Below are positions 13,969-35,560 of a stretch of DNA of 64,000 nt, piece after piece. Below the pieces are notes generated by a model. The model did no database searches. It was given only the letters and a program-made list of their open reading frames with translations, and was not told where the DNA came from. The DNA is from Gemmatales bacterium (GTDB lineage: Bacteria; Planctomycetota; Planctomycetia; Gemmatales; HRBIN36): NCBI GenBank assembly GCA_041640595.1, contig JBEPZY010000002.1:372651-436650 (forward strand), written 5' to 3'. The position numbers and the translations under genes are program-made. The first letter of the stretch is position 1; each line of letters opens with the position of its first letter.

Positions 13969-15264
13969 TTATTCTACAAGACTCAGGCTGCGTGTTCGAG
14001 CCACCTGGCTTTCCACCCAGTCCACGATTAACTCGCCGTTACCGGTGAGTACAATCTGCGAAGAGATGACCTGCGTAGCAACCAGATTGCCCGTGCCATT
14101 GCCGACAAAACGGGTTGTGCCGTGGGCGGCATAGTAGGCGCCGCGGATTTGCAAGTTGCCGTTGCCGCTCACACTGATCGCGTTGGTCGCATCCCGGCGC
14201 TGGTAGAAGACAAGCCCCTGATAAGGCCCGGTAGTCGGGGCACTGATTTCGACGCGTCCTAAGCCGGAGATGTTGATATCGTCCGCTGGCGAGCGCGGAT
14301 CGTTATAGATAAGGACATTGTTGCCGATCAGGTCTCCCTGACCGGTGCTTTGAAAGCCACCCCCTTGCAAATAATAGATGCCCGGCATCAAGGTAACGTT
14401 GACCTGGCCACTAATACTGATGCCCCCTATATAAACGCCCGGTTGCAGAGTTACATTACCGCTGCCACTTAATCGCAGAGTTTGCCGGCTGCGTATCGGA
14501 AGTGAGTTCGGATTCGGTGGCGGCAAATAAGCAAGCGGATCGGGAACCGGAGTCTGTCCGCTGGTGATATTGCCACGGAAAGCCCCGCCGCCTGTCGTCG
14601 AATAACCAGGCGTGCCACTGAAATAAAAATTCGGCGCAGTTACCGACGCATTGCCGACAGCGAGTGCCCCAGCAGAATCGCCAGAATTGACGTACACTCC
14701 GGCTCGGCGCACATCGGCCCTGGCGTTGCCAACGGCATTCAAGGTGGCTCGACCATTCGGATTGAGTACGATGAGACCGCCCTGGACAGCGCTCCAGCGA
14801 CAGCGAGCGACGGCCCTTGCGGCTACCGATAGAGCTTCCGAGCTGAATATAGAACTAAACATTCGTTGCTGCGGAGCACGGATGATCACCTCGGCATAGC
14901 CGGGTTTCCCGGCACCTAATCCAGAGCGTGGCGGAATATAGACCTCGACTGTGCAACCATTAGCCGAAGAATAACCAGCCCGCGCCGCTAAGTCTAACGC
15001 AGCCGCCCGAGCTGCGCCGCTAGCATCTAATCCTCCATACTGAGGATAGTACCTATACAATTCGACCGCGGCTGCCAGTGCCGCAGCATCAGCGGTTGCC
15101 TGCACCCGACGCCGCTGATCGAGTAAGACCCCCCCATCGGTAACAAAAGCTACCGCACCCAACACAGGTACCATCGTCACGGCGGTCAACACCGCTACTT
15201 GCGCCCGTCGCCGCCACGCTAAATTGCAAAAATAGCCGAGAATCTTATAGCCTATCCCGGCCAT
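13969..15264 (-). CDS. TadG-like pilus assembly protein (Tad N-terminus plus Gly/Asn-rich beta-helix region)
   Basis: 'RRAQVAVL..' prepilin-like start, 'DGG.LL..RR.VQATADAAALAA'; 'LQPGVYIGGI', 'LMPGIYY'. Confidence 0.82.
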   Translation of the reverse strand: MAGIGYKILGYFCNLAWRRRAQVAVLTAVTMVPVLGAVAFVTDGGVLLDQRRRVQATADAAALAAAVELYRYYPQYGGLDASGAARAAALDLAARAGYSSANGCTVEVYIPPRSGLGAGKPGYAEVIIRAPQQRMFSSIFSSEALSVAARAVARCRWSAVQGGLIVLNPNGRATLNAVGNARADVRRAGVYVNSGDSAGALAVGNASVTAPNFYFSGTPGYSTTGGGAFRGNITSGQTPVPDPLAYLPPPNPNSLPIRSRQTLRLSGSGNVTLQPGVYIGGISISGQVNVTLMPGIYYLQGGGFQSTGQGDLIGNNVLIYNDPRSPADDINISGLGRVEISAPTTGPYQGLVFYQRRDATNAISVSGNGNLQIRGAYYAAHGTTRFVGNGTGNLVATQVISSQIVLTGNGELIVDWVESQVARTRSLSLVE

Positions 15265-15315
15265 GATTGCTCTCCGGTATAGATGTTGCATCTAATGTAG
15301 ATATAGATGGCCCAT

Positions 15316-15786
15316 CTAATAATGCATCGGGCTGACGGAAGTGCTACTGAGGGTGATGCCGCCGAGGAAAGCCTCCGGTATCCAGCGATAGCGCACCGTG
15401 ACCGTAACGGTATTGCCCACCGCTACCACTTCGTTGTTGCGCACCTCGACGCGATACGGGGCAGGGCTGGTACTCCAGGTAACCTGACACTGCAACTGAC
15501 GGGGATCCAGCCCGATAGCGCGAGGGAGAATGACCCGTTGCAGGATATCGTTAGCAGTCGGGAGTGGTTGAGCGTTTTCGCGGGCATAATCCGCTCCGTG
15601 GACGGCTGCCCATCGCGATGCCTCTCGAGCCAGAGCGGCTACCTGCAGGTAGCGGTACACACCAAAACTGCCGACGATGAGTCCCAGCAACAACAAAAAC
15701 ACAAGCGGGGCCACCAGAGCAAACTCTACTAAAGCAGCCCCTCGACGCTGCTGGTCTAAGATAATCGAAAAGCGCGCGACGCACAT
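15316..15786 (-). CDS. TadE family pseudopilin
   Basis: 'RRGAALVEFALVAP' and 'AREASRWA'. Confidence 0.9.
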   Translation of the reverse strand: MCVARFSIILDQQRRGAALVEFALVAPLVFLLLLGLIVGSFGVYRYLQVAALAREASRWAAVHGADYARENAQPLPTANDILQRVILPRAIGLDPRQLQCQVTWSTSPAPYRVEVRNNEVVAVGNTVTVTVRYRWIPEAFLGGITLSSTSVSPMHY

Positions 15787-15801
15787 GATTGTCTGGCCTT
15801 A

Positions 15802-16239
15802 CTATTGAGGTGCCGCCGGAGCTACGGGCATACGGACCCGGCGTTGCAGAGCCACACGGTTGGGAATGCCTGGATAGTTAGCCAGTGTCTCGAAGGTCCA
15901 GGCGGCGGTAACCACTATATAAGTCCGAGCGCTGCTGTCAGTTTCGTAGCGCCACGTGATCTCCGGTGCGGGTCTGATATCGGCCGCTTCAGCTAAAGCA
16001 GCGTCGCGGATGGACGAATAAGTCAGAGCCAGCGGCGAATAAGGATCGCTACCGTAAAGAGCACCGCTTCGGGCACAGTTTACGAGAATTTGCGAATAAT
16101 AAAAAATTCTTCCGTAATCTAAGGCCACTATGAAGAGAAACATCAGCAGCGGCAGGACTAACGCTAGCTCTACCGTCGCGGTAGCCGGTCGTTGTTTTCG
16201 GCGTTTAGTGTGCATGGTTCTAGCCCTCGAGGCAAGCAT
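15802..16239 (-). CDS. TadE family pseudopilin
   Basis: 'ATATVELALVLP..DYGR..Y...NCARSGA'. Confidence 0.88.
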   Translation of the reverse strand: MLASRARTMHTKRRKQRPATATVELALVLPLLMFLFIVALDYGRIFYYSQILVNCARSGALYGSDPYSPLALTYSSIRDAALAEAADIRPAPEITWRYETDSSARTYIVVTAAWTFETLANYPGIPNRVALQRRVRMPVAPAAPQ

Positions 16240-21636: not shown

Positions 21637-22380
21637 CTATCGCTGAGCTTCGCGAGTGAGCCTCTCCCATAGCTCGGGTTCGCTCTTCCTTCTCAGCTCC
21701 CAACGGTACGAATCGAGCCAGGAGAGCAAAAGAATACCGGCAACCCTAAACTGCCCATCCTCGTCTTTAGTTGCATCAATCGTGTAGTTGACGGCAAGTT
21801 TATAGTCCAGAATCGCGTAAGCACCGCGGCGAAACTCATAACCCGGTATCTGGGGCTGTGCACCTACTGTTTTCCACTCCTCGCGAAGAAGTTTCAATAA
21901 TCGCTGCGGACTTTTCTGGTTGATGATACCCAGTCGGCGGAATTCCGCTCGCAAATAAAGTTCCAGTTCTCGCAAGTCCTTGGCCGGATAAAGCCGAGTT
22001 ATAAAGACGAGAAAGACCTTTTCCGCGTCTTTACGCCCCCCAGCACGCACATGAACTACGCCCTCAGGTTCGAAACGCCAAACCCATTCTTTCCTGCTCG
22101 GCGCAGTAACTCGCATTACATACTCTGGTCGAGGCTGTTTTGGCAACTTGTCATCAAATTCGTCGTACACGTAATCGTACTCGTACAAGCGTATGCCCTC
22201 TTCGTCCTCATCCACAAGTGTCCACGGAATGCCGCTACTAGCTCGAAGAGGTTGACCAATACCGACCACGATATGACGTATAGGTCGTCGTGCAGGGTCC
22301 GGCTGGTCATCTGCTGAGACAGCAAAGTGCGAAATTTGCTGAAGTCCCTGGGCAAGCACTAACACTATCACCGTAAGCAT
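21637..22380 (-). CDS. Exported hypothetical protein, candidate immunity protein
   Basis: 247 aa, hydrophobic N-terminus, AAGGGGG RBS directly after the stop of a short upstream remnant ORF (22393-22587). Confidence 0.6.
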   Translation of the reverse strand: MLTVIVLVLAQGLQQISHFAVSADDQPDPARRPIRHIVVGIGQPLRASSGIPWTLVDEDEEGIRLYEYDYVYDEFDDKLPKQPRPEYVMRVTAPSRKEWVWRFEPEGVVHVRAGGRKDAEKVFLVFITRLYPAKDLRELELYLRAEFRRLGIINQKSPQRLLKLLREEWKTVGAQPQIPGYEFRRGAYAILDYKLAVNYTIDATKDEDGQFRVAGILLLSWLDSYRWELRRKSEPELWERLTREAQR

Positions 22381-22564
22381 AACTAACCCCCTTTATCCAG
22401 CGGGCAAGTTACGGTTTTGTATAATCCGCCTGAGCAGGGTGTTTGGCATCTTGTAAAAAGAAAGTGCTCTGATCTCTTCCTTGACCAAGTTCGGTTCGTT
22501 CTTCCAAAGTTTACGGGGCCATGATTCTTCTCCACGAAAATGTGTATCGCATCCAGCAATGTGC

Positions 22565-23080
22565 TTACTTCGGAATTCTGGTGGCAATTACGTAACAAAC
22601 AGGTGGCGAGCCCTTGTCCCAGTTGAACGTAAAATTCTTGGGTGTTTCACGGACTGCAAGCTTGCCTTGCGGATAAAAAGCGATCACCAGCTTATCTTCA
22701 ACAAACTTATAAATGGCCTTTAAATAAACCTTCTCCTTATCCCGCAACTCCAACCGCGCTGGCTTCTCTTCGGGATAAGAACTCCAGATTAGTTCCTTTT
22801 CCACCCGTTTCGCAGCATAGTGTCCGCACAGGAAAAAAGTACCGTCTTTTTTGAACGTACAAAAGCCTACTCCAAAAACTAAATAATCTGGGTCCAGTTT
22901 GTCCTCTGGGCAGCAGTTGACCACGCTGTCTCTGAACCACCAACTACCAATGAGGTGTTCATCTAGCATTGGTTTGCTTATCCTGTCTTCTCCTGGCAGC
23001 ACGCTACAGGCGATTACGACCATTAAAAAGCTTGTCACAAGGCTCCCCACTAGCGATACACGTCCAAGACGGATTAACAT
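22565..23080 (-). CDS. Planctomycete TIGR03067-like exported protein, candidate immunity protein
   Basis: Signal/lipoprotein N-terminus, 'L.G.W', 'KAIYKF.EDKL.IA....G...P..F' pattern. Confidence 0.6.
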   Translation of the reverse strand: MLIRLGRVSLVGSLVTSFLMVVIACSVLPGEDRISKPMLDEHLIGSWWFRDSVVNCCPEDKLDPDYLVFGVGFCTFKKDGTFFLCGHYAAKRVEKELIWSSYPEEKPARLELRDKEKVYLKAIYKFVEDKLVIAFYPQGKLAVRETPKNFTFNWDKGSPPVCYVIATRIPK

Positions 23081-23118
23081 TGGAAGTCTCCTTATCCAGG
23101 TCTGAGTGTGCTTATTGC

Positions 23119-23646
23119 CTATTGCTTACCACCCTCGCCAGGGACGCGGCGATAAATCACAATTTCCGGCTGACCCATGCGAATATAGTCGTCAATATCT
23201 TTAGGAAAGTCTGAGGGGCGTTTATCTTCTGGTTTGTTCAAGACTTTTTCCCACAGGTAGCAGTTATCCAGGAAACACAGAAGTTCCACAACTTCTTTTC
23301 GTCTATCGTTTTTCACCTCCAGTAAGAGGTAGAACTTCTGCTCGCCTAACTCCTTGATGGAGTATTTACCGGTTTGGTTGAAAAAGGCAGGATCCGAGGT
23401 CTTGCATGTAAAGGTGCCATCCTTTCTCAGAATCAGCCAGGCTTCCACCTTTTGGGGTGTGTACGGCACGCCTCCGGAGAACACAGCCGCATCGAAAAGC
23501 ACCCGCTCCGCCCGCCAAGTGCCGATAACCTCGTTCCGAGGCTCGGCCTCTACCCACAGTATGCCCAGTAGCCCTAGCATCGCTACCAAAGATGGTCTAA
23601 TCAGGAGTCCAAATGTAGCGGCGCGATTGGCGTACATGCTTTCCAC
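23119..23646 (-). CDS. Exported lipocalin-like hypothetical protein, candidate immunity for the upstream C-terminal domain
   Basis: Signal peptide, 'VIGTW', 'L.L.KDGTF', 'GKYSI'; starts 3 nt after the cassette stop. Confidence 0.65.
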   Translation of the reverse strand: MESMYANRAATFGLLIRPSLVAMLGLLGILWVEAEPRNEVIGTWRAERVLFDAAVFSGGVPYTPQKVEAWLILRKDGTFTCKTSDPAFFNQTGKYSIKELGEQKFYLLLEVKNDRRKEVVELLCFLDNCYLWEKVLNKPEDKRPSDFPKDIDDYIRMGQPEIVIYRRVPGEGGKQ

Positions 23647-23649
23647 CTT

Positions 23650-26181
23650 TTATCTAGGTACCAGCCAATTCAGCTGCATATCCTCCACTTCATACCTAGC
23701 CCAAAACCATTTTCCTGCTACCTTTTTCACTTTTCCGGTCACGTAAAATCCAAATTGCTTTTCGCATAGTTGTTGAGTGTTTGGGTCTTCGAACTTGACT
23801 TTGCCAAAATAACCAACGTTTACATATCCATCTCCTGGTCTATAAGCAAGCACAACTGTGACATAACTTCCTCGCTCGTTTTCGAAGGTTTGGCAATAAA
23901 GCTTTACGTCTTTTTCAAGCCAGAGTTGCCAGAGACGCTTGACAATGTCGGTCGCTTGGTCTATCCGCTCCTTAGTTTCAACTATCCGTCTTATTATGTC
24001 CATACCTTTCGATTGCAAGATTAGCTGCTTGAGACGGTCTGTAGCCTCTTGCTGCAGGTCTTTAAAAAGTTCCAGCGCGCCTTCCGTAATGTGCGTATTG
24101 TGAAACCTATCAACCAAAGCCAGAGCATTCAATCGAACGAATTCCATCTCGGTTTGTGGGACGGCAGTATCCTTATTCCTATGTCGTATGTATCCGCCCA
24201 CCCGGCTCAGGATCTGGTTAATTTCACTGCGCCAGTCCCAAATGGAGTTATTCGATACCAAGTTGTTTGGCGCAACGAATACTCGCCAAATCAGGTGGCG
24301 TTCATCTACGGAGGCGGTGTCGCGCACCCGCAGCTCAACATGATATTCCATATAACCAAGCTCGGAATAATCGTGATCTGTAGGTGGCCACTGCGGAGCC
24401 GTCGCAGGGTCAACTATAGTACCCGCGATTCGGCCCGTCGCTGCATCTATAATAAGCTGAGGGGGCAGATTTTCGGCCTCGAAGATCCAATCCGCATCGT
24501 CGCGGGCGGCCGTCGGAACCACCGCATCTATCTCCTCGCCCATCCAGGTCTCCACCACCAAGCCGTCTTCTAACAATATACGAGGATTGTCGAGGATCGT
24601 CCAGGTGAAGGTTCTCAGCTCAGCGTCGGGAATTGTTTCAACTTCTACCTGATATCCTACCTCCGGCTGAGCGGGTGAAGCATTCCGGTAAGCCACACGG
24701 CCTCGCAAAGCTCCGTTCTGTGCGTCCCAGACAATTCCTTGCGGTAGATTGGCAAAACGATACTCCACCGGTTGCCCAGAAACATTCTCGCCCGGCAGTT
24801 CAATGTACACCTCCTCGCCCTCTAAATTAGTCAGGTTCGGCGGTGCCGACCACCAGTCCTTATCCTGGACTGTCCAGGTGACCGTCCTCATATCCTCGCT
24901 CTCGCCATCAGTAACGCGAATGTTTATAATGAATTCCCTCACTCCTTCTATAGGGCCAACATTGCGATAAGAAACCGTTCCAGTAATGCGTCCTGTCGCC
25001 GAGTCTATTCTTAGACCCCGGGGCAGGTTATCCGCGGCATACGTCAAGCTGGCTCGCGTCGCGTCTTCCGCATTTATTTTCACATTTATATAGTCGCCTT
25101 CGCTGATAATAACATCCGGCACAACAGGAATCCTGTTCGTATCCTCAACCTGCCACCGGAACGTCTTGCTCTCCATACCTGTCCCGTCGTTCACGAAAAT
25201 GGTGACTTCCAAGGATCGGGCGTGACCATTGCTGGCAATGTTAGCGTAACTGACATAGCCATACACCAGCCCCGAGTTTGCAAAGTATTCCAGACCCAAT
25301 GGCAATCCCGAATAATGGATTACCAAAGTCTCCCCATCCATCCTGGCGACTGGGGGTATCCAGAAAATAAAATCGCCCTCCCTTGAAACTTGGTCAGATA
25401 TAGACCCTAACCTAGATGTGTCCCTAATCGTCCACGTGCAACTATCGCTTTGGAAACTATTCCCATCGCCTTCTTTGGTAACGGTGATAATAACATGAAA
25501 ATCCACCGGTGGGGCGTTGCTGGCCACATTACTGTAGGCGATATAACCTTGCAGATAGGCACCCGGTTCTCTGCCATCTTCTGCAACCTCAACATAGACA
25601 ACGTCAATGCCGTCCGGCAGACCGGTTACTGTATAGCTAAGCGCATTGCCTTGATCATCTACCAGTGGCCCAATATAGATGCTAACATAATCCCCCTCGG
25701 CATTATATAGATGCCAAGTGTTGTCGCTATTTCCCCAGGACTCTCCACCGCCATCACTGTCGTTCGTTCCCGGAAGTGGTTCATCCAAGTTCGGATTATC
25801 CTGGATGAGCCAGTTGAAGCTGATCGTTGAGGTGTCACCGTCGGCCTGGTTGACGACAGTGATAGTAACCCACAGGTTGACCTGGGGTTGTTCCGCAGTG
25901 GCAATGTTAGAATCTATCGTGCCACTAATAACGCCGATGCTGGAGTCTATACTTAGGCCAGCGGGAAGATTATAGGCACTAAACATCAAGGGGGCCTGGC
26001 TGTTCAGGCCGGCATACGCAGAACCCCAAAGCGATTGCAGGTCAAGATAGACATAGTCGCCTTCGCTATTAGATTGGTCGCCAGGACTAAGCAAGATATA
26101 GTCCGTATTGCGGATGGTCCATGTCGCCGATGTCGAGGCGGTCTCAACACCGTCGCTGACGGTCAGGGTGATGGTATATTC
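23650..26181 (-). pseudogene. 5'-truncated cassette: ~6 putative-Ig (He_PIG) repeats plus an unknown ~200-aa C-terminal domain
   Basis: Repeats 'A.NLP.GL.ID..TG.I.G'; frame opens mid-domain after a TAG at 26182-26184 (EYTITLTVSDG...) with no true start or leader. Confidence 0.8.
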
Positions 26182-26345: not shown

Positions 26346-27437
26346 TCATTCTTTCATACGCTGCCAAGGTTCACCCGTCCGCACATCTAAGAGCATAATA
26401 CTGTCAAAGACAATGCCGTCGCTGCCCGTCCCTACGGCAACCACGAAGTCGCCTGGTTTGAGGCTGCAACCACTGCAACTCCACGACTTAGACCATACAA
26501 CTTTCAAACGCTTGAGATCGTACAACGTGACTAGATTGGAATTCCAGACCACCATATAGGAATCCATCCCAGAACAAAGCACCTCAATAGCCGCGCGGTG
26601 ACTGATACCCTGAATTAGTGTCGAGCCAAGAACTTTGCCCTTTCGCCAATCCCACCATCGAAGTTCTCCAGTAAAATCCAACGCAAGCAGAACCCGATCA
26701 TCTGGTGTAAACGCTAACGCGGTGATACAGTCGTCTCCATCTGCCAGGCCGTCAGCAGTGAGCTTTCCCGTGCGTAGGTCGAGGACGTCTATTAGTTCCC
26801 CGTCCGATATAGCGAGATAGGCCCCATCATGAGAAAACGCACTTACCGGATAAGGCGGCCCAGGCATGCTCGTGCGATGCTCCTTGATTACCCGGCGAGT
26901 GCTGATATCTAAGACGACACAACTGATACCTTCCCAATTCTCAGTACGAGCGACGACAGCTGCGTATTTGCCGTCGGGAGATAGAGATAGTCGAAAGGCC
27001 GCGCGTCCACGCCATACAATCTCCGGCTGCGCGTGATTATCTCTTATAAGGATTGAGTAAAGCTTTCCTTCTGGGGTAAAATACAGCAATTGTCCCCGCG
27101 ATTGGGGCACCCAGGCGAACCCACAACGCTGTGCCCGCTCAGCATAGCGTTTCTCAAGCACGCCGGCCCGTGGGCCATTCCGGACTTCATAGTATTGATC
27201 CAGCACAATCTCTCTGACCGGTCGCCAGTTGCGTGTGTCACACACGAGAACAGTTCTATAGAGCGTATCACCGAAACGGCGTGTGGTTGTCATAGCTAAA
27301 TATTCGCCGTCTTCTGAAAATCTCGGATCACTTATCCACTCTCGGCGAAGAAACCAGAGACAGGAGTCGTTTCCAAAAATGATTGGCTCTTTATAAAGGA
27401 GCGCCATTGCCAAATATATAGCATATGCGATCGCCAT
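26346..27437 (-). CDS. Exported WD40/beta-propeller protein
   Basis: AGGAG RBS, hydrophobic N-terminus, 'FSEDGEYLA', 'LSPDGKYAA', 'FSHDGAYLA', 'ITALAFTPDD..L...G.LRWWD'. Confidence 0.85.
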   Translation of the reverse strand: MAIAYAIYLAMALLYKEPIIFGNDSCLWFLRREWISDPRFSEDGEYLAMTTTRRFGDTLYRTVLVCDTRNWRPVREIVLDQYYEVRNGPRAGVLEKRYAERAQRCGFAWVPQSRGQLLYFTPEGKLYSILIRDNHAQPEIVWRGRAAFRLSLSPDGKYAAVVARTENWEGISCVVLDISTRRVIKEHRTSMPGPPYPVSAFSHDGAYLAISDGELIDVLDLRTGKLTADGLADGDDCITALAFTPDDRVLLALDFTGELRWWDWRKGKVLGSTLIQGISHRAAIEVLCSGMDSYMVVWNSNLVTLYDLKRLKVVWSKSWSCSGCSLKPGDFVVAVGTGSDGIVFDSIMLLDVRTGEPWQRMKE

Positions 27438-27505
27438 GTTGGTCTCCTGTGATGGTTGGTTCCATATCTTTTCCTGTCCAGACACTTCTGAAGTTGTCCC
27501 GAATT

Positions 27506-28006
27506 CTAGTTCCAGCCCCACTCCGGCTGCGGTTTAGCCTTGGGAGGCGGCTTGAGGGTACCTAAATGTTCGTATGCGATCCGAGACGTGCCATCGGGCT
27601 GTGTATAGTACACCTTCACTTGTACGAACCAACGCGTGCCATCCCATATCGGTGCCACCAGGTTGGCTTGTAATGTAGCAGTACCACTCAACGGCCCATT
27701 CGGCTTCCAGTCTAAGTCTGGCTGCCCGCCGCCTATCGCAACGCGGGTAATTGCACTTCCATTTGGCACGGCTTGAAGCGTGACCGAAAAATTGTCACCC
27801 TTATTACCAGGAATCGCCACAGGATTCAGGACGACCTTGCCCCGGAGTGGGCGTGGCGCCTGCCGGGCAGGTCTACCCGGTAATTGCATCGCCAGAAGAT
27901 TAGCTACATTGAGCGGCGGTGGCCCGACTTGCCGTTCGCCTTCCGGCGGTTGTTGCAGCATCTGCGTACGGGCGGATTGGTAAGTTGGCTGGACCTTTAC
28001 TTGCAT
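27506..28006 (-). pseudogene. Orphan C-terminal cassette (QMLQQPPEG junction + beta-sandwich tip)
   Basis: Starts with YQSARTQMLQQPPEG; 36-bp DNA match to 29856-29891; then a variable domain. Confidence 0.75.
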
Positions 28007-28242
28007 TTTGGTTCAATCAAGTACGCCATTATTCTGTAAGACCCTAGCCTGTATCTTTATGATTCGAAGGCCATCTGCTGGACATCCAGTCATTTATCTG
28101 GTCTTCAGAGAAGTCCCCAGACCTGCGGTTCAGTCCCTTAGCACTACCTTGACCTGCCGAATCCATGCTTTACATTGTTCTCGCCTTGGGGACATTTTTG
28201 TCAAGTATTCGTCAAAATAGACCTAAATAACGCATTAGGGTT

Positions 28243-29361
28243 CTATCGTCGCAGAACAACTGGCTTAGCACTCCATTGTCTGGTCACCACGTCTATGCTT
28301 CGCAGTTGCAATCCGGCCTTGGATTGAATTAGCAGAGCACCCAGGTCTCCACGTTGATTTGTTGTGAACCGAGAAATCGCGCCCTCATCCGCCACCTGCT
28401 CTCTGAAAGAATGAGACCAGACCGGGCGAATAGTGGCTCCACACTCCAAAATTACAACATCCCGATCATCGTATAGTATTAACTGCGGTTTGTCGCCCTT
28501 TCTCAAGTACCGGAGATCAAGTGCGCCCCGAGGCGACAGCTCCACCGTTCCTAGTTCTGTACGATTTCCTAGGTCAAAAAAGTGTATAGTACCGTTGCGG
28601 TGCGAGCCGGCCAACGTCTTTCCGTCAGGGCTGAACGCTAAAGAGAAGTAATCGCCACTTGAATCCGCTTGCGACGCCAGTTCCATTGCTCCTTGGTGGG
28701 GCGCGGCTAAGTTGTAGATGAATATAGAATCGTAATCTGTAACTGCTAGCAGGTTGGAACAATCAGAGAAGCTACACGCCGGAGGTATTTGCGAGCGCAC
28801 AGAAAGGCTATTAATATGCAACACTTGTTTCCTAGAAGCAACCTCTAAAACCTGGACCCTGTAATCTTCTCCCGCCGCGTCCCAGGACACTAACGCCAAA
28901 TACTTGCCGTCTCGACTATATACCAATCTAATAACGGGCAAATTTAGGGAATCAACCATGACCCGTGCCTTTTGATTTTTTAGATCAACTTGCCAGAGGC
29001 TTTTTCTCTTCGATCCGTAAACGAGTGTATCAGGATTAGCCGGGTCCCATTCCAGGCCGACCAGACACTTTCCCTGGTGAACATCAACCGCGTCCTTGAA
29101 TATGCATTCCCCTGTCGTCGTGGAAAATACCAAAACTGTTAAATCGGTTACAGAAGGCAATTCTTGCCCTTGCTTGTGCTGCCACAAGGACTCGACAACG
29201 GCTAACAGCTTCCCGTCCTGGGACAGCTTAGGAAAATCAAAGAAACGCAGTTCAGCTTGTCTGCTGAATAGAGCACACCCATCTTGACTAAAGTTCAATC
29301 CTAGCCAGACGCCACAGGCCACCACATAGGCGCAGCATCGGATAATCGGGGTCATACGCAT
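28243..29361 (-). CDS. Exported WD40/beta-propeller protein
   Basis: Signal peptide; 'LSQDGKLLA', 'YSRDGKYLA', 'SLAFSPDGKTLAGS..NGTIHFFD'. Confidence 0.87.
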   Translation of the reverse strand: MRMTPIIRCCAYVVACGVWLGLNFSQDGCALFSRQAELRFFDFPKLSQDGKLLAVVESLWQHKQGQELPSVTDLTVLVFSTTTGECIFKDAVDVHQGKCLVGLEWDPANPDTLVYGSKRKSLWQVDLKNQKARVMVDSLNLPVIRLVYSRDGKYLALVSWDAAGEDYRVQVLEVASRKQVLHINSLSVRSQIPPACSFSDCSNLLAVTDYDSIFIYNLAAPHQGAMELASQADSSGDYFSLAFSPDGKTLAGSHRNGTIHFFDLGNRTELGTVELSPRGALDLRYLRKGDKPQLILYDDRDVVILECGATIRPVWSHSFREQVADEGAISRFTTNQRGDLGALLIQSKAGLQLRSIDVVTRQWSAKPVVLRR

Positions 29362-29425
29362 GAGAGTCCCCCCAGAAATTGGACCCGTTAATTCTATTCG
29401 CTCACCAGCCTCGTGTCTTGACGAG

Positions 29426-30358
29426 TTATGGCCTTCGGATTATCTGTCCATAGCCAAATTGGATGGAACCATCGGGTGCCATGATTGTGACTTTGACGTC
29501 CCAGCCCCAGGTATTTCGTGGAAAGTCGGGAAAATACCTACCTAAGTCCACAGCAGGTCCAAGCCCATTCCCCTGCACTGTCACTTGTATTTGTCCTTGT
29601 CCCTGTCCGTTGAGTTTAACGCCCCTGGGAAAATTGAAGTGCGCCTGGTTTGCACCGGTTATATTGACATCTATGATTTCCCCTCCAGGCACTCCGAGGC
29701 TTATGCTGATATTATAATTTTCGCCTGCTCGACCTGTGCCTGTCCCTGGATTTATTGTCACTTTCGCCCTCGGTATCCTCTTGCGTTGCTGAGCAACCAT
29801 TACCACCGATGCTAGCGCCTCACCAAAAACCGGCTGGGGTTCCTGATTACGCGGACCTTCCGGCGGTTGTTGCAGCATCTGCGCGCGGGCGCGCTGATAG
29901 GCGTCCCAGGCTTCGGTTTCCCTCTCCGTCCAGTCTCGCAGGGCGTTGTTGCGAGCTGTCTGGAATGCCGCTTCCAGGATTTGCCGTGTGTGCCCCAGTT
30001 GGAAGTTGAGTTCGTCCAAGCGTTCTAAATATTGATTCCAGGCCTGCGAATCCGCCTGTATATAGGTGGACTCCGCCGCATTCATCGCCGCCTGCCATTC
30101 ATCATACGCCGCCTGCACTGCCTCTGCTCGCGCCGCTCCCGCCTGATCTAATGCAGTGTAGTATGCGGCGTAAGCCTCCGCCTCTTCATTAGCGTATTGC
30201 TCGTCTTGATACGAGTCTGCCAATCGCGCATCCCGCCTGGCTGCCGCCTCTGCATAGGCCTGGTCGCGCATGGCAGTGGCATACGCAATAGCATTGTCTA
30301 AGTCTTGCTGAGCTTGCTGATACGCCGCATAACCACCGGCATCATCGGCATGTTCCCG
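29426..30358 (-). pseudogene. Orphan cassette: Ala-rich coiled coil + QMLQQPPEG + beta-sandwich tip
   Basis: Frame opens after a TAG, 29 codons upstream of an internal Met (30271); shares a 101-bp block with 32441-32541. Confidence 0.78.
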
Positions 30359-30422
30359 CTAGCTGTGGCGCCGATAGCACCGATCCTATGGCGGATCCAA
30401 AGCCCACGACGGAACGGATTTG

Positions 30423-30785
30423 TCACTGCCTTTGTCCTTGGATTCTGGCCAGATACTCGCGGAATCGCTCCAGCACATGCTCCAGCCAGCCTATTGCAGT
30501 GTAGCCGTCGGCGCTGGGAAGATAATGAACACCCATGCTCTCGACCGGGTACCAATCATCTTTCTCTGGATGCTTCGATAAATACTCACGTGAAAAAGCT
30601 AAGTATTCTTCCAGCTGGTTGAGCACCTTCTGGACGTACTCCGGGCTGGTGTTGCTCAAGAACGCGTCTATCGCGCCTTCGGGTGAGCCGTAGTCGTCCA
30701 TAAAATCTTCGTGGAAATAGCCACCAAAAAACTGCCACAGTTCTGGCCATCTGTTTGTGCAATAATCATCAAGGCGCATTTCCAT
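30423..30785 (-). CDS. CdiI-type (CdiI_2 family) immunity protein
   Basis: 'EL.QFFGGYFHEDF..DY.S...AI..F' signature; acidic, 120 aa; 28 bp downstream of the RNase toxin stop. Confidence 0.85.
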   Translation of the reverse strand: MEMRLDDYCTNRWPELWQFFGGYFHEDFMDDYGSPEGAIDAFLSNTSPEYVQKVLNQLEEYLAFSREYLSKHPEKDDWYPVESMGVHYLPSADGYTAIGWLEHVLERFREYLARIQGQRQ

Positions 30786-30813
30786 GCTCCTTGCATTTCA
30801 CCTTAATTCCAGT

Positions 30814-32541
30814 CTAAGGATCAATATATGCAGTTTGAATTCTGAAGCCTAACGCAGATTTCGAATCCCTAAACAGCACAACTCTAACCTTATGTCCCCC
30901 CTGCAGCTGGCTAGCACCCCTGGCAAGCACCTGCCCAACAGGTTCTGAGAATTGTGTTTGGAGGGCCAGTGAGCGAGCCTCCTGGCCGGTTTGGCGCAAC
31001 CAATCGGCAATTTTGTCAGCATGTGCCTCCAGGACTCGGGCGATGTAATTCTCCGCTTCGTCCAGTGAACGAAAAGTACTGACTGTCGGAAGGTTTGGCT
31101 CTGCTTCCAAACGCTGGAGCAACTCCCTCAGGGACTTGCCCACGTGTTTTGAGATGGTATGCCCGCCAAGACTCTCGTGATAGAGTAAACCACTTTCATG
31201 CCCAAAAAATCGTTTGAGCCACTCCTTTTTGAGCTGGCCTGGTGTAGTGAACAGACGCCGGGAGAACATGAAACGATCTTCTAGCCCGGCGGGAAGCCGT
31301 GGCCCAACTCGGGTGCCGAGTATCACATTTCCATCTCCGGCTATCACCCACCGCCGACTGGCGTTAGCAACGTCGGAGGCGCTTTCCAGCGTCAGGGCTC
31401 CAGCACCCTTGCCTGCCGCTGATACGACAGATCCTTCGCCAGCAAGCAGCAAGTGGCGGGTGGGAGCAGTAAGGTCGTAGGCACGATGCAGGGTTATCGC
31501 TTTAGCACTGGAGTAAAAACCTGCACCCATGGATAGTCCTATATCTGTATATATGGCTGCCCTTTCAGCATGCTCAGGTGGCAGCACGAACTCGTAGCCG
31601 TAGCGCAACGCGCTCTGGGTAAACGTCTCGCGGTCCTTCCCATCTAGCATATTGCACCAGCCAGTGCGCAAGTTGTCCCAACCGTGAAACACCAGAAATG
31701 TCCCTGCGCCTTTCGTCGTCAGGCTCGGGTCAGGCGAAAGTATAAGTCCAGCTCCTCCAACCACTTCCAACGCACCTCCAACCATCATTAGTCCGTTTAC
31801 CACGTACCGGCGAATCCACGCCCGTACTCCCCCTGACTGGGCCGGCGTCGCACTTATCACTAAACTCATACCTATGGGGTAATAATCAATGTGCGAGTTA
31901 GAATCCTGCTCGCTAGTAGTATTCTGACTGCATGAAGTTTGCGCATGACCAAAGCTATCCTGGACAGGTAACAACAAATCCGCGGTCGGCATCTGCGACT
32001 CGTCCCCGGTATCATCAGATGAACAATTACCTTGGAAATTAGCGGAACCACAACAGCAACATCCTTCCAGATCGCGCAAGCTAACCCCGGCATCCAGCCG
32101 CACCTGTATGGGTAGGTCAGCGAAACGCTCGCCCAGCGTACGTGGAGCCACTAACAAACTATATGCGTGCACATAATTTTCCCAGGCCTCTAATTCCTGT
32201 TGCTGCCAGCGTTGCTCCGCAGCAGCAACTGAATCCTTAAACGCCGATTCTAAGTCCCGAACCATAGGCTCTAAATCTCTAACCAATCGGCTCAAACTAT
32301 CGCCATACGTATTCCAGGCTTGCGCCTCCGCTAGTTCGAACTCTGACCTTGCCCTCTGGATTGCGAATTCCCACACACTGTAGGCCGCCGCCTCCGCTTC
32401 GAACCATGCATCAGCAGCCCGACTAAGTGCAGCGGCATAAGCGGCGTAAGCCTCCGCCTCTTGATTAGCGTATTGTTCGTCTTGATATGGGTCTGCCAAT
32501 CGCGCATCCCGCCTGGCTCCCGCCTCCGCATAGGCATGGTC
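30814..32541 (-). pseudogene. Orphan toxin cassette: coiled coil + hydrophobic hairpin + bacterial RNase A-like (CdiA-CT type) toxin domain
   Basis: C-terminus 'HESLGGHTISKHVGKS..EL..RL.....VSTF....AE....VRVVL......GFRIQTAY'; frame opens after TAG-TGA at DHAYAEAG with no start codon. Confidence 0.85.
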
Positions 32542-32603
32542 TCACTACACCATGCTTTTCGCCTCGGTAGCAATAGATCACTATTGTTCGTCTGAATTAA
32601 CGC

Positions 32604-33836
32604 TTACTTCTTTGGATCGGCAGCAAGACCATCCACATACTGCTGGGGCACCTTCCATATGACAATGCGCCCTTGGGAACTTTGTTTGTCATTTTCGACG
32701 GCAGGACGTCTTCGCAGATGTGAGGAGATGGCGAGTTTTGTACCATCGCGGGAAATCGCGGCCACCCAAAATTCCCAATCAGGGTTACAAGATTCGGTTT
32801 TGCAGATGCGGCGTGCCTTCAGGTCCCAGACCTTCAGCACACTTCTTGTGACTTCTTCCTGCTCCGGCGGGTCGAATTCCTCGGCGAGCACGTATAGGTA
32901 GCGCCCGCTCGGACTTATACATCCGAATGGATAGTAACAATTCGAGTCCCGCAATATTAGGGAAGCCGGGGTCGGAATGACGAAGCTGGGTTGTTCCCAA
33001 TTCTCACAGGAATAAATTCGACATACCCCGTTGGCATAAATGGTTGCCAAAGTTTTGTCATCTTCACTGAGAGACATCCACATTAAACTATCAGTTACCA
33101 AGGGGTAAAGTGTGTGCAAAACTTGGCCGCGAACCACTTTTGGAGGAACGTCTTCCAGAATCCATGGCACAAGGATAGCCGGTGAACCAAAAGACTGATC
33201 AGACGCGAAAAGGAACTTGCCATGCCCAGGAACTATGAGCTGGTCAATCTGCGCTAGAGAGAGTCTTACCTCTGCAAAACATTGCCAATTAGTCACTGAG
33301 TAAAACTTGATCCGTGACTCAGGTAGTTTTGTCGGGTTTTGCGTGGTCGGCCCGTCGCCTTCTAGTGCCACTGCTAAATATTTCCCATCCCGGCTAAAGG
33401 CCAAACTCTCTACCCTAGTTTCACCGAAGTCTAGGACTCCTATCCTACGAAAATCCACCAGGCTGAAACACTCAACCTTGTTCTTCCATACACGAATTGC
33501 AAAATATCTTCCATCTCGAGAAACAGATTGCAGCCGCGGCCCAAATGAGTTAGAGGGTAACCACATTCTTCTAGAACTTTTGGACCTGAGATCATATACG
33601 ACTAATTCCTCGCCGGCTGTGTAAATCAGGCGGCTGCCATCCGTGCTAAACCCGAGTAGGCCAGCTGCACTTCCAGACTTTGGGCGTATTTCGTCTAGTT
33701 GTTCCCAATCTGCGTCTGGAACGTTAGGCACTTCCGCTTGCACTAGCCCAGAAAAGGCAAGCACCGCATGGACCACGAGAGTCGCAAAGTCCCAGAACCG
33801 TGCGTATTTCATTTGCTTCTGATGCGCTCGTTTCAT
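32604..33836 (-). CDS. Exported WD40/beta-propeller protein
   Basis: AGGAG RBS, signal peptide (..GLVQA), 'FSTDGSRL', 'VESLAFSRDGKYLA', 'LKVWDL'. Confidence 0.87.
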   Translation of the reverse strand: MKRAHQKQMKYARFWDFATLVVHAVLAFSGLVQAEVPNVPDADWEQLDEIRPKSGSAAGLLGFSTDGSRLIYTAGEELVVYDLRSKSSRRMWLPSNSFGPRLQSVSRDGRYFAIRVWKNKVECFSLVDFRRIGVLDFGETRVESLAFSRDGKYLAVALEGDGPTTQNPTKLPESRIKFYSVTNWQCFAEVRLSLAQIDQLIVPGHGKFLFASDQSFGSPAILVPWILEDVPPKVVRGQVLHTLYPLVTDSLMWMSLSEDDKTLATIYANGVCRIYSCENWEQPSFVIPTPASLILRDSNCYYPFGCISPSGRYLYVLAEEFDPPEQEEVTRSVLKVWDLKARRICKTESCNPDWEFWVAAISRDGTKLAISSHLRRRPAVENDKQSSQGRIVIWKVPQQYVDGLAADPKK

Positions 33837-33850
33837 ACACATTCTCCTAC

Positions 33851-34858
33851 TTACAATTTGCCCATTGCTTGATCGGCTGCCTGCAGATATTGCGCATAAG
33901 CTTCGTCCGCTAGATTCTGCACCGTGGCAACTGCGGTTTGCCAGCCGGAGTCGCGCTCATTCACGGCTTGCTGCACCGCGGTAATATAGATAGCGTTCGC
34001 CTGTTCGACACGCGCAACATAGGCGGGATAGGGATCCGTCTCCACCCGCCACTGGAAACTAATCTCCTCCCAGTCGCCGCTTACCGGGTCAGTAACTGTG
34101 AGAACCACCGTATAGTCGCGAATGTGTGATTCAGGAGTGACTAAGTCCGCGTCTATAGTCCTCTGTACCGTGCCATAGAGGGAGTCGAAACTTAGTCCCG
34201 AAGGCAGATTTTCATAACTAAACATCAAGGGGCCGGAGAAGCTGCCCTGCGTGTAACTCAGCTGCGGAGCGAAGAACACCGTCTCGCCGGGATGGCTAAC
34301 CAGCGTGCCGGGCGTCTCCACCGAAAAGGTGTTATCGAGAATAATAAACGGCACGATGGCCGACTCGGTTTCGGTGCCATCGGAGACCGTGATAGTGGCA
34401 TTATAGGTTACGGGTGAACCGTTACGTGGCACGGCACTGCGGAGAGCGGCACCACTAAACTCACCGGTGGTCGGGTCGTAACTAATGCCGGGTGGCAAGT
34501 CGCGGACACTAAACGTCAGACTCCCGGCCAGGTTCGGGTCATAAACGACACGAACATAAGCTTCGCCGCCATAAATCGGTTCGTCCTCATACTTAGTCAC
34601 GGCGGGCGAGGCCTCCAGAGTGAAATGATTCGCAGTCAAGGTGCGAGGCTCTAAGCGTCCGCATCACGCTAAGCATTACATAGAGGGCGAGGATTTCGGG
34701 TTCTAAGCATGGAAACTGCAATCGGACAGATGGGTGAGGCTTTACCTCGATGCGGAAAAGTTTACCGAACCATGCACGAAGCCAGGCGCAGAGCTTCCGT
34801 GTGTGTGTGTGTGTGTGTGCTGGTTGCACACACCGTCGGCGAAGTAGGGCGTGCTCAT
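33851..34858 (-). pseudogene. Disrupted head gene of the toxin array: LEPR-type leader, 2 He_PIG domains, start of the Ala-rich coiled coil, then truncated
   Basis: ATG 34858, (CA)10 tract, 'RKLCAWLRAWF..RLQFPCLE' in one frame and 'RLEPRTLTANHF' in the Ig frame; 'DLPPGISYDPTTGEFSG', 'ENLPSGLSFDS'. Confidence 0.75.
34799..34818. repeat. (GT)10 / (CA)10 dinucleotide microsatellite
   Basis: Read directly from the sequence. Confidence 0.97.
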
Positions 34859-35048
34859 AGTTGTGTCTGCTTTAGAACGTGGACGTGATGCTGAGTTGGG
34901 CCGCTGAACTTGCTTTTATCAAAAATCCGCGGCCGTCTCAAGAGGAAACTGAAAAATTTTTCTGCCGAGGAAATTTTCCTCAAGTCATTCCCGTAGCGTA
35001 GGTTGCGTCAGCGGCGCAAACTCGATAGGGAATTCGGGGCATGCCGAG

Positions 35049-35145
35049 GGCGGATGTTGAACCATGAAGCGGCACTGCGCTGACATATCCATGTCAACAA
35101 TCTTGTCAAAGCCCGGCGGATGTTGAACGATTAAGCGGCACTGCG
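35049..35145. repeat. 31-bp direct repeat pair separated by 35 bp
   Basis: GGCGGATGTTGAAC(C/G)AT(G/T)AAGCGGCACTGCG at 35049 and 35115. Confidence 0.85.
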
Positions 35146-35370
35146 GGGGCTGGCCAATACCGTTCGCCGTGCGTTTGCATTCGCACGCGGAGCTAAGCGA
35201 AACACCCACGGCACCGGCACCCCGATGCCGTCCGCCGTTGGTTTGCTCACACACCCAGCGTGTATTCGACCTGCGTTGGCGGGAATAGGGCAGGTTTGCG
35301 GATACCGTTAGCAAGTCAGCCAATCAGGCGAGTGATGCTAGAAATTAATTCGCATATTTGCCGGTCAAGC

Positions 35371-35560
35371 ATGCGGTGAGGCGACGTTGCCAAAGCCCGA
35401 AACATGGCTCAAAAGAAAAAGGGGGATTCCAGCTCCCACGAAATGCAGTGAGAGGACGTTGCGAAAGCCCGAAACACGGTGTCGAAATAACATTCTCCTA
35501 CAATTGGGATGGGTGAACGAACATTTAGCCAAAGCCCAAAACATGGTGTCGAAATAACTT
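35371..35560. repeat. Three degenerate ~70-bp tandem units
   Basis: AAAGCCC(G/A)AAACA(T/C)GG x3; TGTCGAAATAAC x2. Confidence 0.75.

Follow-up and report, generated by a model that had tools for sequence, protein, structure and literature searches.

Why should WD40-type β-propellers with hydrophobic N-termini be encoded directly behind fragments of a large surface protein, in the place where a toxin system keeps its immunity genes? The question is posed by an array of genes in a 64,000-nucleotide stretch of a Gemmatales bacterium genome (G000:C2:372651-436650, the window), in which three propeller genes (WD1, WD2 and WD3) are interspersed with fragments carrying a helical trunk and a variable C-terminal tip. 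The original prediction was that the exported propellers act in the periplasm as tip-specific immunity proteins or as receptors. A tip-specific exported partner is supported here by clade matching, joint excision, a co-fold model and linkage in other genomes, and immunity is favored over reception: the locus is probably a polymorphic-toxin array, in which the propellers would be tip-specific immunity proteins acting outside the cytoplasm.

The array lies on the minus strand throughout, in a block of lower GC content (0.48-0.54 versus about 0.59), and the sequencing runs that match it come mostly from hot-spring and mat metagenomes; a close relative of the cassette protein carries a Planctomycetota label at its source. 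Read 5' to 3', it begins with a broken parent gene (33851-34639) and WD3 (32604-33836), followed by an orphan cassette of trunk end, Gly-rich hydrophobic segment and RNase A-like toxin tip (30814-32499; PF18431, E 9.5e-29), a cytoplasmic CdiI_2 immunity protein (30423-30785; PF18593, E 1.1e-16), a cassette of trunk end and tipB (29426-30271, tip at 29426-29779) and WD2 (28243-29361). Next come a cassette of short trunk end and tipA (27506-28006, tip at 27506-27853), WD1 (26346-27437), a fragment of Ig repeats carrying a further tip, and three proteins with hydrophobic N-termini. As originally described, CdiI sits behind the RNase tip, and the two form a recognizable toxin/immunity pair within the array. 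TipA and tipB both belong to an Ig-fold family, T1, and their partners WD1 and WD2 start 68 and 64 nt downstream of the trunk and tip fragments. The third propeller had been placed behind such a fragment as well, but its upstream neighbor is the parent, cut early in the trunk with its tip deleted, and no tip precedes WD3. Contigs from two sequencing runs extend just 29 nt past this junction, versus a 31-nt rule for bridging.

The open reading frames (ORFs) of all three divergent WD40 proteins were confirmed. Their best matches to propeller or WD40-type Pfam models have E-values of 9e-10 (WD1), 4.4e-23 (WD2) and 1.2e-8 (WD3), all under the curated whole-domain cut-offs, as divergent members; WD2 scores 20.3 bits against a PF00400 cut-off of 27, and WD1 and WD3 have no PF00400 listing. 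A WD1/WD2 profile matched 335 PDB sequences at E<=0.001, with PkwA on top (E 2.8e-27), and WD3 alone gave one weak PDB match (E 0.003). WD1 and WD2 are full-length homologs (23.6% over 318 aa, E 1.6e-14), each the other's nearest relative among the propellers of the genome, and the likeness of WD3 to them is local only. By BLAST, the closest cassette partner of WD3 is the propeller of locus L032 (21%, E 1.5e-13), and its link to the L032 tip family comes from BLAST only; a scan of the genome collection returned no WD3 relatives. Export was judged by a hydropathy proxy, the maximum 12-residue Kyte-Doolittle value (KD12), and by eye. The hydrophobic N-termini originally described were recovered, with values of 2.24, 2.07 and 2.27 for WD1, WD2 and WD3 versus -0.03 for CdiI. 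By eye, WD3 starts with a classic signal peptide; WD1 lacks a basic n-region, and its N-terminus could be an uncleaved anchor. Judged from these sequence features, the propellers are presumably exported and periplasmic.

The pairing of tips with propellers recurs across genomes. All three distinct T1 tips with a visible next gene in the genus precede a gene of the WD1/WD2 clade (two further T1 tips sit at contig ends), and in genome G003 a WD1 homolog lies behind a homologous T1 tip. A second tip family, T2 (three loci), and tips with a Cys-His-Asp motif called by eye (three loci in two other genera) each have a propeller clade of their own. In a propeller tree of 26 rows, which has many long branches, leaves WD3 unresolved and excludes one WD fragment, each group occupies one side of a branch, with supports of 97/91 for the T1 propellers (WD1 and WD2 included) and 100/100 for both the T2 and the Cys-His-Asp propellers. 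Tip labels change five times on this tree, which is the minimum and was equaled by none of 200 shuffles. On the co-phylogeny of tips and WD40s proposed as a check, each of the three tip families goes with its own WD40 clade. Identities of tips and propellers track each other within families (50/35, 29/24 and 31/23%; 49/45, 35/33 and 41/34%), and over 12 pairs the two similarities are correlated (Pearson 0.95, Mantel p 5e-5, Spearman 0.09).

Homologous propellers were also found linked to such cassettes in other genomes: in 15 genomes of the family, all four WD1/WD2-clade genes lie within trunk arrays, although all four were part of the search model. A propeller also follows a DUF4347 tip, which, like the Cys-His-Asp tips and an Rhs orphan tip, counts as enzyme-like. 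In the same genome as the window, a classical Rhs orphan array (L108, G000:C3:72702-80453) carries a tip (C3:76814-77593) followed by an exported WD40-type propeller (C3:75762-76805), and the immunity slot with an exported propeller is used by this second delivery system as well. The Rhs tip, whose motif was called by eye, showed no detectable relation to the Cys-His-Asp tips. If the propellers were unrelated island cargo, linked to tips by shared transfer only, neither the clade matching in three families nor the linkage in the four clade members would be expected, and a co-fold of tipA with WD1 that passes against controls (below) also speaks against it; exported WD40s are common in the genome (hydrophobic starts in 14 of the 25 canonical ones) and one propeller stands without a tip, but we regard mere hitch-hiking as highly improbable.

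One cognate pair, tipA with WD1, was co-folded together with three controls. The interface score (ipSAE, interaction prediction score from aligned errors) was 0.73 in three runs, and the best of the three controls reached 0.01; contact agreement was at least 81%, with a predicted local distance difference test (pLDDT) of at least 83 for the tip and 78-79 for the WD1 chain. Of solved pairs, 116 of 157 reached this ipSAE mark, compared with 2 of 215 mismatched ones, a calibration that is roughly applicable because our own alignments were used. Contacts are predicted on loops around the propeller, which we take to be the usual ligand face of WD40 proteins, with an acidic propeller side against a basic tip side. 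The model supports binding of tipA by WD1. Between allele groups, the predicted tip interface is less conserved than the remainder of the tip (33-37% versus 57-59%, p 0.03-0.09).

On its own, tipA is predicted by AlphaFold2 to be a seven-strand Ig-like sandwich (pLDDT 84.9). Its best fold matches are Ig, E-set and IPT domains at middling scores (top Z 8.2, root-mean-square deviation (rmsd) 2.6, 84 residues aligned); Foldseek with tipA returned nothing at E<=0.001, and Pfam, atlas and fold searches found no catalytic family for T1 tips. The top matches include Ig domains of the galactose-oxidase family and plexin (Z 7.8-8.2), which pack against propellers in their own proteins. They raise a very unlikely alternative in which a variable propeller, as the working head, would be mounted on the stalk with the Ig tip as its adaptor. 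A trunk with a fused repeat-propeller-like tip at locus L081 would suit such docking, but the Z values are middling, the predicted contact covers loops that WD40s normally use for ligands, and propellers also lie behind enzyme-like tips.

A non-catalytic Ig sandwich whose interface diversifies between alleles would also fit a non-toxic code in which the tip is an adhesin and the propeller its receptor, so that cells of the same allele recognize or adhere to one another. In its favor, the trunk also bears adhesin-like tips, one tip family shows homology to its own partner (hhalign 96.5%, E 7e-10), and the text on EsrA (PMC13622651) describes a diversified surface WD40 sensor. The propellers here, however, lack a surface leader, stalk, lipobox or signaling domain, are retained after tip loss and beside silent tips, alternate with RNase and CdiI, and follow an Rhs tip, and we consider this ligand-receptor code, which had been offered as the alternative in the original prediction, doubtful. 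A further, tentative possibility is a non-enzymatic lock-and-key code, in which alleles of the Ig tip and propeller fit each other on a new helical-hairpin carrier: either a kin-recognition receptor pair derived from a toxin array, or a toxin that would jam an essential propeller of the host, with the WD40 partner as its decoy.

The DNA of the array suggests that tip and partner move together. The trunk provides recombination homology in repeats D1 and D4; the D4 copies in the trunk ends (27939-27974 and 29856-29891) are 94% identical and mark a recombination point between cassettes. In two of four sequencing runs tipB and WD2 are skipped as a unit, with joints at 27947-29859 and 27982-29906 whose short sides measure 30 and 50 letters at 90% likeness. 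These joints are suggestive of cassettes that recombine at the trunk end, with the tip traveling with the gene behind it. TipA and tipB are 29% identical over the tip domain, the trunk of the tipB cassette is 71% identical to that of an intact paralog on contig C8, and a near-identical tipA allele terminates the full-length parent protein P0001. The T1 family is narrow: it occurs in 2 of the 267 genomes of the order, and a search of 1.84 billion representatives gave 18 hits, four of them single-domain relatives and the remainder long multi-stretch proteins (four of these were scanned). Atlas searches with tipB and the C8 tip gave no match at >=0.9. Elsewhere the same trunk carries nuclease-like, HExxH, lipase-like, Cys-His-Asp, caspase-like and adhesin-like tips, types that were called by eye except for those named by Pfam. 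A fold common to the L032, C8 and T4 tips was also considered, and profile comparison did not confirm it.

Partners also divide by compartment. A hydrophobic N-terminus was found in 29 of 31 partners outside the nuclease-immunity types, the two exceptions being broken ORFs (background 34%), versus none of six CdiI, REase, HINT and HEAT-type partners, four of which immediately follow a nuclease-type tip. In the RNase cassette a hydrophobic segment precedes the nuclease (19-residue hydropathy 1.78); the T1 tips lack such a segment.

What carries these tips can be read from intact relatives of the broken parent. The remnant in the window, which has two He_PIG Ig domains (E 2.9e-12) and the first ~58 aa of the trunk, is 94% identical over 258 aa to the parent at G000:C8:40379-42781, and 33866-34962 is 87% identical to this paralog in DNA. 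Relative to the paralog, a 52-nt insertion and 12 nt of CA repeat put the leader region (34640-34858, minus strand) out of frame with the Ig domains. Intact parents (C8, P0001-P0003, G017, G034 and others) share a leader, Ig domains and trunk, and their tips differ; the architecture is a surface leader, two Ig domains, a helical hairpin trunk of ~300 aa and a variable C-terminal tip. Near the N-terminus they have a motif that fits the planctomycete cell-surface leader LxLExLExRxxP (PMC8567305). Two of five leaders match PF07595, under the cut-off (E 0.19 and 0.007), and a regular expression for the motif hit 6 of 18 further parents, many of them cut or broken. The trunk has no Pfam match, and its profile matches 20 of the 267 genomes of the order. 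It shows 11/3 periodicity, a net charge of -35 and no membrane segment, and is modeled by AlphaFold2 as two helices of ~140 and ~150 residues around a turn, with pLDDT mostly >90 across the helices and a whole-model predicted template modeling score of 0.46. A fold search with the full parent returned generic long hairpins only (chemoreceptor Z 11.7, rmsd 9.8, 301 aligned), which agree, though generic, with antiparallel trunk helices as modeled. Likeness of the parent to Tc toxins was set aside, with rows at TM 0.12-0.17, and no pore or channel is claimed.

Taken as a toxin array, the locus would work as follows. An intact parent would be exported via the planctomycete surface leader and would present, beyond its two Ig domains and the ~300-aa antiparallel hairpin, an exchangeable C-terminal tip; recombination at the trunk end would bring in new tips, each together with its following gene, as the DNA suggests. 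Nuclease tips would have a hydrophobic entry segment and cytoplasmic partners, and tips without this segment would have exported partners, often WD40 propellers. The propeller may grip its tip via the loops on one face, outside the cytoplasm, and in doing so would neutralize it. The Ig-fold tips would be toxic, a proposal drawn from their position, and would probably act not catalytically but by binding an envelope protein.

Each propeller gene has a purine-rich ribosome-binding site at its start and partner genes have such sites, which are absent from the tipA and tipB fragments. With the parent broken, the tips lacking ribosome-binding sites and the partners intact, the present role of the locus would be to shield the cell from the tips of neighbors. 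Immunity is favored because it accounts best for partners that are intact although their tips are silent or deleted, and for propellers that follow enzyme-like tips. A propeller that merely escorts or folds its own tip in the periplasm of the producer, with no role against incoming tips, would show the same linkage, co-divergence, export signal and predicted binding; such a chaperone would leave unexplained why partners are intact and have ribosome-binding sites where the tip is silent or deleted, and the small Ig domain is modeled confidently alone, which makes it unlikely. Promoter and terminator counts at the locus are the same as in shuffles. An RNA run covered 29 of 30 bins, but intergenic DNA is included in this coverage, which therefore gives no evidence of transcription.

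Several observations weigh against immunity. Its weakest step is the toxicity of the Ig-fold tips, argued from position only: their invariant residues are structural (Pro, Gly and small hydrophobics), some tips of a second family on the same trunk are adhesin-like, and on the propeller side conservation of the interface is no different from the remainder (p 0.26-1.0). Close cousins also pass the co-fold mark (10 of 12 colicin pairs). The correlation between tips and propellers is driven by blocks, as its Pearson and Spearman values indicate, kin are non-independent, and the co-divergence could be explained by the shared history of linked genes alone. In G002 a T1-clade propeller has no tip in front of it, and in G017 a degenerate T1-like tip (hhalign 83%) is followed by a lipocalin-like protein. 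The division by compartment depends on partner starts picked by eye and on the hydropathy proxy, across related loci.

By its architecture this is a polymorphic toxin system, not contact-dependent inhibition (CDI): no Pfam or NCBIfam match to a two-partner secretion/FHA stalk or a CdiB transporter was found in the array, the scanned neighbors or the parents. Polymorphic toxin systems with orphan cassettes (CDI, Rhs, MafB), as described in the text of the 2012 survey by Zhang et al. (PMC3482391), have a common export leader, a stalk, a variable C-terminal tip and an adjoining partner gene, and share silent tip cassettes and poly-immunity arrays with the present locus. Here, in contrast, the stalk is an Ig pair plus a helical hairpin without a Pfam match, and most partners are exported. 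The same text reports that Ig and β-propeller domains were not found among immunity proteins, nearly all of which are cytoplasmic, and describes interaction scaffolds recruited as immunity proteins (Imm-LRR, Imm-Ank, Imm-HEAT; PMC3482391). Leucine-rich repeat (LRR), ankyrin-like and HEAT partners occur here too, the LRR and ankyrin-like ones with hydrophobic N-termini, and WD40 joins them as a further scaffold.

The closest known parallels differ in form. As described for Tse1/Tsi1 of Pseudomonas aeruginosa (PMC3391265), a periplasmic all-β immunity protein with propeller-like blades opposes an effector that acts in the periplasm; Tsi1 is a partial, three-sheet propeller against a peptidoglycan hydrolase of the type VI secretion system, whereas the propellers here are full-size and WD40-type and are found repeatedly opposite several unrelated tips, of which one is non-catalytic. 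For the Lipocone toxins, immunity is membrane or periplasmic and the location of the partner was used to infer extracytoplasmic action; the immunity folds named in passages of the text, source-data tables excluded, are BamE-like, jelly-roll, OB, β-sandwich and transmembrane, not WD40 (PMC12419801). EsrA of Actinomycetota is, as here, an exported, sequence-diverse WD40 propeller in a conflict setting, but it is described as sitting on its own Ig filament and feeding a kinase pathway (PMC13622651), whereas the propellers here are stand-alone genes behind a tip. Proteins with the planctomycete surface leader (PF07595) share their motif with the intact parents at Pfam scores below the cut-off, and the paper on that leader gives them no toxin role, the word "toxin" having 0 occurrences (PMC8567305). 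In the literature searched, mostly open-access and excluding supplements, which are a possible source, we came across neither this carrier nor full WD40 immunity. If the immunity reading is true, full WD40 propellers would be a repeatedly recruited immunity scaffold, a fold reported absent in the 2012 survey. The locus defines an unnamed planctomycete toxin carrier whose tips mostly lack a family and seemingly act outside the cytoplasm; the carrier offers cargo for study of the surface-leader export route, and the allelic tip-propeller pairs are a small panel suited to the question of toxicity versus recognition.

The suggestion that such cassettes explain part of the WD40 expansion in planctomycetes is mostly unsupported, with 4 of the 41 propeller ORFs in the genome in such slots. 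With 150 of 220 candidates scored, PF00400 matched 135 times, in 25 ORFs; no trunk lies near any of them, and the cassette profile adds 16 propeller ORFs, including the three of the window and one at the Rhs array; among the remaining ORFs, neighbors were inspected for two. The contribution of cassettes is small here, and the trunk is present in 20 of the 267 genomes of the order.

Downstream of WD1, also on the minus strand, the second carrier fragment (23650-26094) combines He_PIG repeats (E 1.6e-30), 91-95% identical to Ig regions on contig C3, with a C-terminal tip without family. Three further exported proteins in partner positions follow (23119-23646, 22565-23080 and 21637-22380, spanning 21637-23646; KD12 2.5-2.7), and the second has a weak TIGR03067 match below the cut-off (E 0.001). 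The partner slot is repeatedly occupied by TIGR03067-like lipocalin proteins that start with a hydrophobic stretch (window 22565-23646; L022, L025, L035), often behind Ig-like tips, and this is a possible role for that uncharacterized planctomycete family. At three loci (L029:2070-3543, L021:300-2108 and L034:275-907) the tips of one family and their own exported partners are homologs of each other (34%, E 6e-11; hhalign 96.5%), and at L034/L035 a partner-like domain (59% to the G003 partner) is fused to the trunk as a tip.

A second family with the same trunk (L025, L055, L079-L107) has very diverse tips (peptidase-, lipase-, nuclease- and adhesin-like) and exported partners of LRR, ankyrin-like, Ig, lipocalin-like or WD40 type. 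Other carriers in the genome have different stalks. L002 (G000:C3:561713-570451) is a leader and Ig carrier with a Gly/Thr/Asp low-complexity stalk and an REase tip (PF21111) with a cytoplasmic partner, continuing with a tip without known family and then an exported LRR protein; L005 (G000:C3:420366-425941) encodes a leader-bearing protein of 1698 aa with a long Ser/Thr-rich stalk, a HINT-like region and a small tip, next to a cytoplasmic partner. A stand-alone RNase tip remnant lies beside an intact CdiI-like gene at L004 (G000:C9:36363-37011). Upstream of the parent remnant, the non-coding region 34903-35546 contains short direct repeats (31 and 37 nt), shared at ~90% with the sequences that precede the C3 and C8 carriers, and is a possible common regulatory element. 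A few kilobases from the array, at 13969-16239 of the window, lie TadE/TadG-like pilus genes.

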